Below, one piece after another: positions 43,323 through 47,163 of a DNA stretch of 47,180 nucleotides (the first letter of the stretch is position 1; every line of letters begins with the position of its first letter). The notes under the pieces are model-generated. The model did no database searches. It worked only from the letters and a program-made list of their open reading frames with translations, and was not told where the DNA came from. This DNA comes from Escherichia phage phiEB49. The translations under genes were made by a program, and so were the position numbers. The DNA is taken from sequence record JF770475. The stretch is one strand, 5' to 3'.

Positions 43323-43508
43323 TCAAACGAGGGATACTTTATCAACGCTGACTTTGTGGACTGCCAGGTCAATCTTAAATGCTGCCTTTGCGGCTGCAAC
43401 TGCTTCTTCTGGGCTATCAGCAAGGAACTTACCTTCGTAGGATTGCTGGCAAGATTTGCATTGCCTGCCCATTAGGCGGGAAGTTAATCGGACTTCGTAG
43501 TTATTCAC
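43323..43508 (-). CDS. hypothetical protein (61 aa)
   Basis: ORF track. Confidence 0.4.
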   Translation of the reverse strand: MNNYEVRLTSRLMGRQCKSCQQSYEGKFLADSPEEAVAAAKAAFKIDLAVHKVSVDKVSLV

Positions 43509-43698
43509 TCATCGAGTCCTCTAGCATCTTGTTAAACTCATGCCTATCAAACGCTTCGTTATGCTCAAGGTTAATGCATGTATAAAGGCCATTCATATAA
43601 CAAAAGTGTTCTCCATTCTCGCCTTCTTTAAGCTTGATAATATCCTCTGTAATGCTTCCTGTAATTGTGTCTTTAACGATGATAGTTACAATTTTCAT
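43501..43698 (-). CDS. hypothetical protein (65 aa)
   Basis: ORF track 43501..43716 trimmed to second ATG. Confidence 0.4.
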   Translation of the reverse strand: MKIVTIIVKDTITGSITEDIIKLKEGENGEHFCYMNGLYTCINLEHNEAFDRHEFNKMLEDSMSE

Positions 43699-43829
43699 GT
43701 TTAACTCAATGCACATAGTGCTGGTTGATTAATGCTTCGTTTATATTGCGCCGCTGGCTGGGTGATAATGAATCAAATCATAACAGAGCCAACCACTCGA
43801 CAACTTGACGGGAGCTACCCGCCTTACTT

Positions 43830-43906
43830 TGGTGGCCCGCACTGGATTCGAACCAGCATCGATACTTGTTAAGTACGGGAATCTTATCCTGTAAGCCTAA
43901 CGGGCC
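43830..43906 (-). tRNA. tRNA-like sequence, possibly degenerate (anticodon arm not resolvable by eye)
   Basis: Acceptor stem GGCCCGT/GCGGGCC, T-arm GCTGG-TTCGAAT-CCAGT, ACCA 3' end; only candidate anticodon loop is TTAACAA with a weak stem. Confidence 0.3.
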
Positions 43907-43907
43907 T

Positions 43908-43983
43908 TGGTGTTCCGCGCTGGACTCGAACCAGCAACTGAGACTTAGGAGGTCTCCGCGTTATCCTGTTACGCCAGCAGAAC
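43908..43983 (-). tRNA. tRNA-Arg (anticodon CCU)
   Basis: Hand-folded cloverleaf: acceptor GTTCTGC/GCGGAAC, D-arm GCGT-AACAGGATA-ACGC, anticodon arm GAGAC-CTCCTAA-GTCTC, T-arm GCTGG-TTCGAGT-CCAGC, CCA. Confidence 0.6.
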
Positions 43984-44236
43984 TAGAATAGGTGCCGGTT
44001 ACGGAATCCGGCGAGCTTTCACAATGCTCCGCAAGTCCGACTTACACTTTGCTTTTGGCGATGCGGTAGTTGCCTCGTATCTTTACCCAGCCCTGCTATC
44101 GGCTTGCATCTCCGCGATGCGCGTTACGGTCATTGCCGTCTACGTGGTTAATACTAATCGATTTTAACATTTGAGTCAAGCCATGACGACGAAATAAATC
44201 CATGTCAGCATGCCTGCCAGTAACCAGATTGATAGC

Positions 44237-44476
44237 TCAGTCATAAATCTGTTCTCCATCTTCCCGCTTACCCACGCGACCAGCAAGATACCCAGCCACC
44301 CAAACGAATCGCATCTTCTCGATGATTGTGCTGACCGGGCTATGGAGCTCGCAGATAACATACTTCATTACTTCGTTATCCTGCTTTTGCTTTGCGGTCA
44401 TTTTATCTACTGCTTCGTTTAACTTTTTGGCCTGGGCGCGCACTGCGTTGAATTGTGGTTGAGTAAGTCCGAACAT
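44237..44476 (-). CDS. hypothetical protein (79 aa)
   Basis: ORF track. Confidence 0.45.
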   Translation of the reverse strand: MFGLTQPQFNAVRAQAKKLNEAVDKMTAKQKQDNEVMKYVICELHSPVSTIIEKMRFVWVAGYLAGRVGKREDGEQIYD

Positions 44477-44477
44477 T

Positions 44478-44669
44478 TTAAAATCCTTCCGCTCTAATGT
44501 ATGAACAAAGTAGCTCTATAACTTCAGATTGATCAAAGTCTCTGATTGGAGGGATCATTGATGGTTTGATTCCAGCATCTAGACACCTAAAAATAGCTTC
44601 ATCCTCATTAAGAGATGTAGTGAAAATATAATCAATCTCATCCCTTGTGTTTTTAATGTCGCGAATCAT
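44478..44669 (-). CDS. hypothetical protein (63 aa)
   Basis: ORF track. Confidence 0.4.
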   Translation of the reverse strand: MIRDIKNTRDEIDYIFTTSLNEDEAIFRCLDAGIKPSMIPPIRDFDQSEVIELLCSYIRAEGF

Positions 44670-44671
44670 TA

Positions 44672-44806
44672 TTAAGCCTTCTTGTAAGATTGAATGTCGC
44701 CGCCGAGAACTGCGTGTTTAGCCTTTGCTGCTTCATAGCTGTCGTACACACGCTTATGCATCACGCTGTTAAACCTGCCTGTATAGTACGTATGAATCCA
44801 AATCAC
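44672..44806 (-). CDS. small hypothetical protein (44 aa, GTG start)
   Basis: GTGA-coupled to upstream small ORF; below ORF-track cutoff. Confidence 0.25.
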   Translation of the reverse strand: MIWIHTYYTGRFNSVMHKRVYDSYEAAKAKHAVLGGDIQSYKKA

Positions 44807-45077: not shown

Positions 45078-45202
45078 TTCTTCTCCTCGCGCTCGCGCCA
45101 CATGTTCATCAACTCAAAGTATGCCATTGCCTCATCGCCGTCCTTTGCCTCATCCATCATCTTCTTGCACCACTCAGAAGGATTCATTTCCTTCTTCTTC
45201 AT
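45074..45202 (-). CDS. small acidic protein (42 aa)
   Basis: MKKKEMNPSEW...; below ORF-track cutoff. Confidence 0.25.
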   Translation of the reverse strand: MKKKEMNPSEWCKKMMDEAKDGDEAMAYFELMNMWREREEKK

Positions 45203-45249
45203 AATCAGGTCCATCACTACCTTTGCCTCATCTATTTTCGATAAAGTAA

Positions 45250-45293
45250 TAATATCGCATCCTTGCGATTAATGTTTAGCAATTCTTGCTATT
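45250..45293 (-). promoter_or_regulatory. dyad-motif promoter
   Basis: Core 45277-45291 (TAGCA-attct-TGCTA) overlapping upstream stop; weak -10 near 45251. Confidence 0.4.
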
Positions 45294-45540
45294 TGCTGAA
45301 ATAAACATATCCAAGCTCATCCCGCTGCTTTCGAAGCTCAACAGCCTTATTAAGCGACTCAATGGCGTCATTAAGGTCTGTTAGATAGTCCTTATGCCCT
45401 CGCAAACCAGTGCAAAGCATCTTTTTAATTGCATGCTGAATTGCTGGGTCAGTTACGCAAAATGCATCAAGAACTCGATATACATCAACTGTTACTTCAG
45501 TTCCATCGAGGCCGATAATCTCTCGGTTGTACTTACTCAT
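45289..45540 (-). CDS. hypothetical protein (83 aa)
   Basis: ORF track 45289..45588 trimmed to ATG 45540. Confidence 0.45.
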   Translation of the reverse strand: MSKYNREIIGLDGTEVTVDVYRVLDAFCVTDPAIQHAIKKMLCTGLRGHKDYLTDLNDAIESLNKAVELRKQRDELGYVYFSK

Positions 45541-45676
45541 AATCTTCACCCTCATTAACAATAATAAGACCAAGACAATCGCTATCACATGCAGTTAAAT
45601 TTCCAAACTTTTTGTGGAACTCAACGCATTCGCTGATTGTCGTAAATTCATATTGATTTTCAACTTTGTTATTCAT
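45533..45676 (-). CDS. small Cys-containing protein (47 aa)
   Basis: ATGA-coupled to downstream gene; below ORF-track cutoff. Confidence 0.25.
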   Translation of the reverse strand: MNNKVENQYEFTTISECVEFHKKFGNLTACDSDCLGLIIVNEGEDYE

Positions 45677-45794
45677 ATCTCAATCCTCGTTATCGTGCCG
45701 CCATGCGTCGCCTGCATCAACATGGCGTATCTCTCGTCTATATAATGCAGTAGCATATCCATACCCCTGCTGCTGAACTTGTGCTCGTATATGG

Positions 45795-46034
45795 TCACTT
45801 GTATTGGCTAGACAGTTGGCAACCTGATAGCGCTGTGCAAATCTGCTCGTATCGGCTCCATGCGGTATCGGTATCCCATGGCAGCTCATCTACTTCATCG
45901 AACTCTTGGTTGCGAATCTGATTTAGGGCCTCTGCGATGACGCCTGAATCCTGGAACATTCCTTTTGAGTCGAAGTACTGAAGTGCTACTTTCAGTGCAA
46001 ATGCTTGCTCTTCTGACAGGTTAATGGTAATCAT
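45795..46034 (-). CDS. hypothetical protein (79 aa)
   Basis: ORF track; preceded by dyad promoter and conserved leader. Confidence 0.45.
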   Translation of the reverse strand: MITINLSEEQAFALKVALQYFDSKGMFQDSGVIAEALNQIRNQEFDEVDELPWDTDTAWSRYEQICTALSGCQLSSQYK

Positions 46035-46065
46035 GTTAACTTCCTCTCGTTTGGTTGATAGGGTA

Positions 46066-46110
46066 ATAATAGCTGACTACCCGATTTATTGTTTAGCAAT
46101 TAGTGCTATT
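46066..46110 (-). promoter_or_regulatory. dyad-motif promoter
   Basis: Core 46094-46108; minus TATTAT 46066-46071; leader CCAAACGAGAGGAAG. Confidence 0.5.
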
Positions 46111-46648
46111 TACCGGTCAGGATATACTTCTCTTTGGCCTTGAGCTTACGAATTGCCTCGCGTATAAGTTTCAGCTGAGATTCATCAACTTCATTCATAA
46201 AATCAACCACGACAAATTCATCCTCCAGTGGCTTTACTTTACCAATCCATTCCTGCTTTCCATCCAGCAATCGAGGGTTGATGTAAATCTTATCGCCGAT
46301 TAGGCATGTATAGCCAAGCTTATCCAGGGTTGGAATGATGACATCCTTAATCTCCTTCATGACTCCATTTCGCCCGTCGAATGGCTTAACTTTCCGTGCC
46401 GCCTCATATAGTGACCTGAGGCCCACAACGCCCTTGGAGTTCATCCCTTGCTTAATGAGGGTTTCGATGATTTTTAAGGTTCCACTGTCTAGCTCGAAAT
46501 CTTTAACCTCAGCCAACTCAGGCCACATCTTCGCAGATTGTCGATAACCATTAGCATTTATTGCAACTCGCATCACTGGCAGTCCTTCAAGCGTTGCGAT
46601 TTCATAAATCTGTTCTTCGGTTAATTTATGTTCAACGAAGTCAAACAT
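46106..46648 (-). CDS. short paralog (180 aa) of the 527-aa early protein, lacking the central P-loop region
   Basis: Shares MFDF..RVAINANGYRQSA N-terminus and NSKGVVGLRSLYEAARKV..GDKIYINPRLL C-terminus with 1805..3388. Confidence 0.55.
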   Translation of the reverse strand: MFDFVEHKLTEEQIYEIATLEGLPVMRVAINANGYRQSAKMWPELAEVKDFELDSGTLKIIETLIKQGMNSKGVVGLRSLYEAARKVKPFDGRNGVMKEIKDVIIPTLDKLGYTCLIGDKIYINPRLLDGKQEWIGKVKPLEDEFVVVDFMNEVDESQLKLIREAIRKLKAKEKYILTGK

Positions 46649-47163
46649 TATTTAGTATCCTTAATCATTTCCTGATATGCATTAATCATAGCCACCGCGC
46701 CCTTTAACTCATCGCCGCTCATTCCCGCAACGCTAGGGGATAGCTTTAGTAGTCGAGCCTTAAATTCATTTACCGCTTTCTCTTCCAGCTGATTGTTGGT
46801 CTTTGCTCTCGTTCCGGTCTTAACGGCGCCATCAACCATTGTAAGTTTGACGCAGTAAGCACAAGGATCATCTCCAAACTCCATGTTGAGAACTGAGAAT
46901 CTCGCTCGCTTATTCGCATCCTTTACTTCTTGCATTCTGCTGGCCGTATTGGAAACATAAGAAGCCTTAAGCTTAGGTATTGAATATTTCCCGCCAGGCT
47001 TGAAATAAGAGTCGCACAACTCTTTCTCGATGAATCCATCATTTAGCTTCTTATAAATCATCTTGTATGGTATGGCGCATGCTCCATCTTCAGAAGCTAG
47101 TGCTTCACGAACCATGTATCTAACGATGTCACCAAGTGATGGCTTGCTTGTATCTTGATTCAT
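46648..47163 (-). CDS. hypothetical protein (171 aa); its promoter and leader wrap across the window boundary
   Basis: ORF track; leader CACACAAACGAGAGGAG is split between 47164-47180 and 1-12. Confidence 0.5.
   Translation of the reverse strand: MNQDTSKPSLGDIVRYMVREALASEDGACAIPYKMIYKKLNDGFIEKELCDSYFKPGGKYSIPKLKASYVSNTASRMQEVKDANKRARFSVLNMEFGDDPCAYCVKLTMVDGAVKTGTRAKTNNQLEEKAVNEFKARLLKLSPSVAGMSGDELKGAVAMINAYQEMIKDTK

Follow-up and report, generated by a model that had tools for sequence, protein, structure and literature searches.

The DNA of Escherichia phage phiEB49 (JF770475; the window is the whole stretch analysed, 47,180 nucleotides (nt)) carries on its minus strand, at positions 43323–47163, a dense leftward cluster of small genes, gp61 to gp74, situated between a divergent control region and the terminase genes. 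We consider it probable that this segment is a non-structural small-gene arm made of coupled blocks that encode accessory, non-virion factors, a conserved core plus a variable set, whose most plausible role is to modulate, early in infection, the host or its defences. The cluster itself is already known, being present in GenBank with all of its members as hypothetical proteins, as is typical of the T1-like family. An earlier note on this DNA had described at least 12 short open reading frames (ORFs) here, packed together and translationally coupled. Twelve were found, gp61–gp72, encoding 32–83 amino acids (aa) at their conserved starts, and the spacing of their junctions bears out the packing and points to coupling; two larger ORFs, gp74 (171 aa) and gp73 (180 aa), had been left out of that note. 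Features described below lie on the minus strand unless stated otherwise.

phiEB49, a T1-like siphovirus, belongs to the JK06/Rogue1 group and has a genome of 47,180 bp (PMC4070988), all of which the window contains; it has been put to use for generalised transduction of uropathogenic E. coli. Proteins gp62–gp74 correspond to those deposited in JF770475 by exact sequence or at 100% identity (gp69 and gp73 at 100%), with gp66 and gp65 identical to the deposit at their annotated start codons. The 61-aa form of gp61 has no match among the deposited proteins, and the deposited start of gp61 is therefore probably another one. The nearest records (Sf12, AKS96, Sd1, Rogue1 and others) give patchy matches to the region at 80–90% identity, and none of the phage records searched, which did not include phiEB49's own, covers at least 80% of it. 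The homologous arm from ten related phages was used as the panel of relatives. All ten share the order gp74-like gene, gp73-like gene, small genes, tRNA-Arg, gp61-like gene, terminator and small terminase subunit gene (terS), and by gene order the phiEB49 cluster is a T1-like (Drexlerviridae, Rogunavirinae) small-gene arm.

The genes fall into six leftward blocks: gp74–gp73; gp72–gp69; gp68–gp67; gp66–gp63 with M22, an unannotated ORF described below; a leader with tRNA-Arg and a tRNA-like element; and gp62–gp61. Ten of 11 within-unit junctions consist of an overlap of 1, 4 or 8 nt or a gap of 1–2 nt. The overlaps quoted in the earlier note are exact (ATGA at 45077–45074, GTGA at 44806–44803 and ATGAGTAA at 45540–45533), and additional ones were found at 45798–45795 (GTGA), 45676–45673 (ATGA), 46648 (1 nt), 44244–44237 (8 nt) and 43508–43501 (8 nt). 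Expressed as the distance from stop to start, with overlaps negative, the junctions measure −1 nt (gp74/gp73), +71 nt (gp73/gp72), −4 nt (gp72/gp71 and gp71/gp70), −8 nt (gp70/gp69), +74 nt (gp69/gp68), −4 nt (gp68/gp67), +71 nt (gp67/gp66), −4 nt (gp66/gp65), +2 nt (gp65/gp64), +1 nt (gp64/gp63), −8 nt (gp63/M22), +477 nt (M22/gp62) and −8 nt (gp62/gp61). A Shine-Dalgarno duplex of −4.5 kcal/mol or better is present at 13 of 15 starts; gp62 has only a weak one, and gp71 has none at its GTG start, which lies inside a GTGA overlap, an arrangement that would fit re-initiation by the terminating ribosome. With this spacing, and with Shine-Dalgarno sequences inside the upstream gene, the blocks have the sequence features of translationally coupled operons. 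Each block would be translated as a coupled unit, so that its tiny proteins would be made together.

Coding signal was assessed using a codon-usage log-odds score. The training set was 29 ORFs from elsewhere in the window, each 150 aa or longer, and stop codons were excluded from the model to deny open frames a free advantage. The top 14 scores among ORFs of at least 30 aa in 43230–47180 belonged to exactly the 14 annotated minus-strand genes, each of which outscored at least 99.5% of a set of 193 spurious ORFs lying inside real genes, and no plus-strand ORF of the region stood out. The ratio of non-synonymous to synonymous substitution rates (dN/dS) was calculated from codons threaded through tblastn alignments, pooled against the ten relatives. 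It was 0.04–0.29 for gp74, gp73, gp72, gp71, gp69, gp68, gp66, gp65, gp63, gp62 and gp61, and the third-position share of differences over these 11 ORFs was 0.44–0.73, with third-position concentration in most. Synonymous divergence of gp70 was too high for a ratio, and gp64 and gp67, with a homologue in none of the ten relatives, gave none. By these estimates every testable gene of the cluster, M22 included, is under purifying selection. The earlier note had proposed to give up its mini-ORFs if coding signal were lacking; codon scores and dN/dS instead mark them as coding, and they are therefore real genes. Two further frames were rejected as genes: a 61-aa ORF at 44176–44361, with a negative codon score and an out-of-frame overlap with gp63, and a 35-aa ORF at 44096–44203, the sole open frame of the leader, with a dN/dS of 1.62 and only 24% of differences at third positions. 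The HNH-like string NHVDGNDRN is coincidental, since its 35-aa frame failed these coding tests.

Conservation across the relatives separates a core from a variable shell. The core across Rogunavirinae, as judged from these alignments, comprises gp72, gp71, gp69, gp68, gp65, gp63, M22 and gp61. gp72 (45795–46034; 79 aa) is acidic, with an isoelectric point (pI) of 4.1 and a dN/dS of 0.29; gp71 (45673–45798; 41 aa; dN/dS 0.14) is found in all ten relatives; gp69 (45289–45540; 83 aa; dN/dS 0.13) starts at the ATG at 45540 within the 8-nt overlap; and gp68 (45074–45214; annotated at 46 aa; dN/dS 0.04) is highly charged. gp65 (44672–44806; dN/dS 0.06) has 44 aa when started from the GTG of its GTGA overlap and 49 aa as annotated. 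The best conserved mini-protein is gp63 (44237–44476; 79 aa; phrog_303; dN/dS 0.06), present in 10/10 relatives at 84–97% identity, for which a homologue search returned 11 close relatives only, none with a name. gp61 (43323–43508; phrog_2919; dN/dS 0.21) is likewise found in 10/10 relatives, at about 92% identity; it has 61 aa from a GTG in the 8-nt overlap with gp62, and a 49-aa ATG form is also possible. gp74 (46648–47163; dN/dS 0.13) and gp73 (46106–46648), whose ATG overlaps the gp74 stop by 1 nt, are more divergent than the core, and gp73 is absent from Sd1.

The earlier note had suggested comparing presence and absence among related phages, and part of the set does vary, as accessory genes are expected to. 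gp70 (45533–45676; 47 aa; acidic; starting in an ATGA overlap) is found in 4/10 relatives and gp66 (44803–44901 in its conserved 32-aa form) in 7/10. gp62 (43501–43716; annotated at 71 aa; acidic) occurs in 1/10, namely AHP24. gp67 (44973–45077; 34 aa; starting in an ATGA overlap), a single hydrophobic helix and predicted membrane peptide, is in 0/10, and in five other T1-like records it is matched at 79% identity over its full 34 residues. gp64 (44478–44669; 63 aa; acidic) is also in 0/10 and is nearly an orphan, its sole match being Rtp rtp14 at 43% identity. These variable members are mostly acidic or membrane proteins. The acidic proteins of the cluster (gp72, gp70, gp64 and gp62) have a pI of 4.1–4.8, with gp70, gp64 and gp62 at 4.3–4.8; these three are small, acidic and variable, which are traits of anti-defence and takeover proteins, whereas gp72 is acidic but belongs to the core. 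The pattern of presence and absence is that which would be expected of accessory, host-facing genes.

M22 (44176–44244) is a 22-codon hydrophobic ORF encoding MTELSIWLLAGMLTWIYFVVMA, which we regard on alignment evidence as a new tiny gene beyond the public annotation. Its ATG lies within the last codons of gp63, with an 8-nt overlap, and its stop overlaps the −35 element of the next promoter. It is found in 10/10 relatives at 91–100% identity, with a dN/dS of 0.08 and differences distributed 6/1/22 over the three codon positions, and the overlap junction is kept even where Rogue1 gp12 is inserted upstream. The peptide is absent from a collection of 15 billion proteins, and there is no gp number between gp62 and gp63. 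M22 and gp67 are the two predicted single-helix membrane peptides of the cluster.

Several deposited starts, those of gp66 (44937), gp65 (44821), gp68 (45214) and gp62 (43716), look too far upstream when compared with relatives and PHROG profiles, which back shorter forms of 32, 44, about 36 and 65 aa, respectively. The annotated ATG of gp66, which gives 44 aa, falls within a −10 hexamer at 44938–44933; the 32-aa start at 44901 comes roughly 25 nt after the predicted start of the transcript, the PHROG match opens at residue 13, and relatives call the 32-aa form. The conserved core of gp68 begins around residue 8–11, and the 65-aa form of gp62 from 43698 matches phrog_16862 from its first residue.

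Two promoters of the arm have a proper −35 element. The gp74 promoter is of the sigma-70 type (14–41; TTGCAA, 16 nt, TG-TATGAT) and, the genome being circularly permuted, spans the junction of the record; at the same place before gp74 the relatives have diverged promoters with a good −35 and no repeat. The promoter of the leader, tRNAs and gp62–gp61 (44151–44179) is near-consensus sigma-70 (TTGACT, 17 nt, TAGTAT), and its hexamers are invariant in six phages (−35 TTGAC(T/G), −10 TAGTAT). Both could plausibly be used by the host polymerase unaided. At the packaging side the earlier note had placed a terminator, and an intrinsic terminator is present there (43294–43278; GCCCTC-CTAGT-GAGGGC followed by T7), closing the cluster upstream of terS (42708–43223). 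Just past it, in 43230–43277, terS has an extended −10-like sequence of its own, TGgTACAAT, and the packaging genes are therefore probably not reached by read-through from the arm. No convincing terminator was found between the inner blocks, which are thus reachable by read-through.

The inner blocks are separated by copies of a dyad repeat. The earlier note had counted four dyad promoters dividing the set; dyad cassettes do separate blocks, but the canonical dyads in the region are three (46093–46109, 45276–45292 and 44960–44976) and not four, a possible fourth being either a look-alike at 44083–44099 (3 mismatches, non-palindromic) or the sigma-70 promoter at 44179–44151. Cassette 1 (46066–46109) consists of ATAGCACTAATTGCTAA (46109–46093), 21 nt and TATTAT (46071–46066), and holds the TAG stop of gp73; cassette 2 (45249–45292) consists of ATAGCAAGAATTGCTAA, 21 nt and TATTAT (45254–45249), and holds the TAG stop of gp69; cassette 3 (44933–44976) consists of ATAGCACGAATTGCTAA, 21 nt and TATGAT (44938–44933). 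All ten relatives have cassettes 1 and 2 where phiEB49 has them, and the third is in phiEB49 and Sf12 only among the 11 phages compared. A stretch of about 85 nt around cassette 3 (44894–44979) matches approximately 236 Klebsiella phage records at about 78% identity, and is the only part of the region to match those records.

Throughout the window, TAGCA-N5-TGCTA occurs 10 times against 0.03 expected, and ATAGCAC-N3-TTGCTAA occurs 20 times with up to 2 mismatches (6.5 copies are expected in the window when up to 3 mismatches are allowed). In 17 of these 20 copies, a 5/6 match to TATAAT starts 20–22 nt past the repeat (16 at 21–22 nt), and no −35 element is found at the cassettes in the geometry measured over the 20 copies. 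With 21–22 nt to TATNNT, the repeat occupies about −50 to −34 and has its centre near −42. The TAG of the repeat often doubles as the stop codon of the upstream gene. Further copies lie, for example, at 588, 1265, 1728, 5556, 7049, 8484, 10880, 12434, 17121, 19728, 26278, 27985, 32927, 35432, 40579 and 42695, and cassettes of this kind precede helicase, portal, capsid and tail genes, in replication and structural modules alike. The copy at 12434 is directed away from the downstream tail-fibre gene and sits, operator-like, just after a −10-like TATACT. From this geometry the cassettes are probably promoters for which the repeat would be a required UP-like or activator site; they may also serve as recombination points for module exchange. 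Assignment of the dyad as a sigma-54 promoter was rejected (the GG/GC spacing is 8 nt rather than 10, and the first G is an A), as was an analogue of the T4 MotA box (TTGCTAA ends 21 nt before the −10 rather than about 12) and the use of TTGCTA as a −35 (the spacer would be 22 nt).

Taken with the sigma-70 promoters, this arrangement suggests how the arm would be expressed. The first block and the tRNA block, starting at good −35 promoters, could be transcribed unaided at the onset of infection, while the three inner blocks start at family-wide repeat cassettes with a TATNNT −10 and no −35, which would probably act as internal promoters adding to upstream read-through. Promoter type is the sole sequence-based argument for early expression and would apply directly to gp74–gp73 and to the tRNA/gp62/gp61 unit; beyond this, we infer 'early' from position.

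Protein-coding sequence is absent from about 43720–44176 (approximately 460 nt), which holds the sigma-70 promoter, leader, tRNA-Arg(CCT) and tRNA-like element, and this RNA-gene unit, rather than ORFs, takes up about 12% of the region. The non-coding leader (44030–44150, with a degenerate look-alike of the repeat at 44083–44099) is found in 46 phage records, and its first 95 nt or so are nearly invariant among six phages. Folding of the whole leader as a stable RNA has no support, with a z-score of 0.19 and shuffled sequence equally stable. At its end, however, covariation supports two terminal hairpins, to which such support is confined (43994–44029; GAGC-ATTGTGAAA-GCTC and GCCGG-ATTCCGTAA-CCGGC). 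Over six haplotypes from Rogunavirinae, Nouzillyvirus and one Pantoea phage, the loops ATTGTGAAA and ATTCCGTAA are invariant and the stems covary: 98% of cells are paired, 5 of 9 pairs differ on both sides, none of 500 shuffles attains such pairing, and no slid register comes close. When IMG/VR was scanned for the exact pattern, the paired version of the motif turned up on T1-like contigs only. An Rfam search of 43700–44300 at E-values up to 10 gave the tRNA and chance-level matches only, leaving the leader and motif unmatched. The leader with its motif may act in cis as a regulatory RNA specific to the family; it may instead be an operator bound by a protein to control gp61, or give rise to a small RNA.

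The motif is conserved in diverse Drexlerviridae. In ESCO41, Rogue1, Sd1 and phiEB49 it is followed by a tRNA, and in 50EP, P818 and AAS23 the gp61-like gene comes next, with its ribosome-binding site immediately after the motif. Since these tRNA-less relatives run the leader into the gp61-like gene, the tRNAs and gp62 look like insertions into an older leader–gp61 unit. The tRNA-Arg(CCT) (43908–43983 by ARAGORN; 43911–43983 by Rfam, 57.8 bits against the RF00005 gathering score of 29) is present in all relatives. The element beside it (43830–43906; called Val-AAC by ARAGORN) scores 24.6 bits in Rfam, below the gathering score of 29, with its anticodon arm unaligned to RF00005; it has a good acceptor stem and T arm, a poor anticodon arm, and an anticodon at an unusual position. 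An AAC anticodon for Val is not normal in bacteria. The 3′ part of the element (T arm and 3′ strand of the acceptor) is 87% identical to that of the tRNA-Arg, and it is probably a decaying duplicate of this neighbour. At the corresponding position, Opt-79 and Phleasolo give an odd tRNA-like call of 93 nt. Neither the tRNA-Arg(CCT) nor the tRNA-like element was in the earlier note.

That note saw no recognisable function in the mini-ORFs, and hidden Markov model and fold searches still give none. In PHROGs, 12 of 15 candidates fall into families of unknown function, with E-values from 1e-14 to 1e-82, and neither there nor in Pfam or NCBIfam was any structural family matched. Pfam gave DUF7174 for gp74 (also phrog_4841) and a weak, marginal DUF7180 for gp72; NCBIfam gave nothing for the proteins of the cluster, and sequence searches of the PDB with gp74, gp73, gp69 and gp63 gave nothing. 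The only named families matched, each in part, were a DNA-helicase PHROG by gp73 and an 'ATPase' PHROG by gp69. Over part of its length gp73 is similar to the C-terminal end of the phage helicase family phrog_2373, and a fold search assigns gp73 a winged-helix fold like the ORC/Cdc6, MarR and MukE/JetB domains; winged-helix domains often mediate protein contacts rather than DNA binding. gp69 forms a compact domain in which about 30 residues are invariant. Its profile finds 4421 representative protein clusters, usually with the domain C-terminal in phage proteins of 150–314 aa; these have no Pfam model over the domain and no named structure. A motif had suggested DUF3310 or a SaV-like identity, but Pfam matched neither gp69 nor ten longer carriers of the domain, and PDB profile and BFVD fold searches with gp69 returned uncharacterised phage proteins only; DUF3310 is at most a lead. 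The presence of a 756-aa Streptomyces RecD2 helicase in the 90% cluster of gp65 reflects no real similarity and is a clustering artefact.

Several points weigh against a role in host or defence modulation early in infection. No match to a characterised anti-defence or takeover family was obtained in PHROGs, Pfam, NCBIfam or PDB, none of these being a dedicated anti-defence library. The literature searched holds no transcript, protein or phenotype data for phiEB49 or a close relative, and no transcriptome of any Drexlerviridae phage turned up in it. The repeat cassettes do not mark an early class, because replication and structural genes carry them too, and the start codons of gp68, gp66, gp65, gp62 and gp61 are ambiguous. 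The BASEL study (PMC8594841) cuts both ways: the large, unexplained differences in sensitivity to immunity that it found among Drexlerviridae speak for such a role, while the high sensitivity of most of them to restriction systems argues against a rich anti-restriction arsenal.

The strongest rival, which we nevertheless judge unlikely, is that the cluster encodes regulators or helpers of phage DNA transactions (repeat-based transcription, replication and recombination, or packaging initiation) and is not directed at the host. The winged-helix fold of gp73 and its partial likeness to phrog_2373 would suit such a role, the cluster adjoins the genes of the small and large terminase subunits, and approximately 20 promoters without a −35 need some factor. 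However, gp73 is an unlikely repeat-binding factor and cannot be a universal one, because it is absent from Sd1, which keeps the repeats; a strong terminator stands between the cluster and terS; and the variable acidic and membrane peptides are better explained by accessory roles.

It is less likely still that much of the cluster is mosaic cargo of little benefit, an assembly of orphans, decaying duplicates and homing-endonuclease sites maintained by frequent recombination at repeat cassettes and conserved gene boundaries. The patchy coverage described above is what such cargo would give, gene-sized insertions and deletions fall exactly at conserved junctions such as TTTATGACTGAG, the Sf12 arm includes an HNH endonuclease gene, the second tRNA resembles a decaying duplicate, and no DNA of the region is shared more widely than the repeat cassette. 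Against this, purifying selection is strong on the core and on gp66, the one variable gene with several homologues in the panel, and coupling is intact after every insertion or deletion. The reading of the mini-ORFs as frames left open by chance in a spacer without coding function or with a regulatory one, to which the few homologues of gp64 and gp67, the missing Shine-Dalgarno sequence of gp71 and lengths below 50 aa in several cases might lend some colour, is extremely improbable, being refuted by codon scores above at least 99.5% of spurious ORFs for all 14 genes, by dN/dS of 0.04–0.29 where computable with mostly third-position bias, and by PHROG matches for 12 of 15 (formally the refutation does not extend to gp64 and gp67, which have codon usage and sparse homologues). 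Only 44030–44176 (dN/dS 1.62) fails, and it is treated as non-coding.

Two neighbouring features were also recorded. HNH homing-endonuclease genes lie in or beside the same arm in other phages (Sf12 arm sequence 2579–2887; AKS96 562–1077), and there is none in phiEB49 43323–47163. The control region at 1–620, between gp74 and the first rightward gene, contains an (ATA)n run at about 262–288, several copies of ATCATTGC or TTGCAA-like words at about 470–580, and a hairpin at 102–116; it may be an origin, a pac site or an operator region.

The cluster is an obvious place to seek the genes by which T1-like phages take over the host, including degradation of host DNA, and those behind their very uneven sensitivity to bacterial immunity. 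Tentatively, and with more doubt than confidence, the leader motif can be proposed as a new regulatory element and gp70, gp67, gp64, gp62 and M22 as new counter-defence or host-modulating factors; if this holds, the variable mini-proteins and M22 could explain why T1-like phages differ in their sensitivity to immunity. Such phages are often met as contaminants, as transducers and as candidates for therapy. Practical value lies in a vetted list of small genes, with starts corrected for gp66 and gp65 and probably also for gp68 and gp62, in one new 22-codon gene, in a map of transcription units and in the division into conserved core and variable members. The corrected starts, M22, the fixed cassette geometry and the covarying leader motif go beyond public annotation, a modest but concrete addition, and the last two provide concrete regulatory elements for the transcription programme of the T1-like family.

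The arm can be compared with several known systems. The pre-early region of T5, the class I genes of T7 and the early ORFs of T4 are likewise small, coupled, poorly conserved and near a genome end; they are transcribed by the host polymerase, and acidic or membrane peptides are among their products. They differ in that their timing and several of their functions (Ocr and A1/A2, for example) are experimentally established. The phiEB49 genes have no homology to theirs, and its family-specific promoters are shared with late genes. As in other phage tRNA units, a bona fide tRNA-Arg(CCT), which reads the rare codon AGG, stands behind a strong promoter, but in phiEB49 it is preceded by a conserved leader with a covarying two-hairpin motif. 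Roberts et al. are said to have described in 2004 many small, homologue-less genes at the ends of the T1 genome. The corresponding arms of T1-like phages (T1, Rtp, TLS, JK06, Rogue1, AKS96, Sf12 and Sd1) share the gene order, tRNA-Arg, cassettes and terminator before terS, with homologues in rtp1, JK_42–47, T1p04 and Rogue1 gp03–gp14; phiEB49 differs in its own mix of gp64, gp67 with an extra cassette, gp62 and the second tRNA-like element, and lacks the 64-aa gp12 gene that Rogue1 has between gp63 and M22. Finally, a 21-nt direct repeat, aaATAGCACnnnTTGnTAAAA, has been reported for TLS, and is also found in T1, Rtp and Rogue1; it is oriented with transcription and sits some 76 nt ahead of start codons, and proposals for its function are a stoperator, an enhancer or an UP-like element (PMC11447400). 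By match, intergenic place, direction and distance, the phiEB49 copies are TLS-type repeats at the sequence level, with the same orientation, the same spacing of about 76 nt to the start and the same three central-triplet subtypes, and phiEB49 adds to the TLS description a fixed TATNNT spacing, the palindromic core TAGCA-N5-TGCTA and the use of the TAG as a stop codon.

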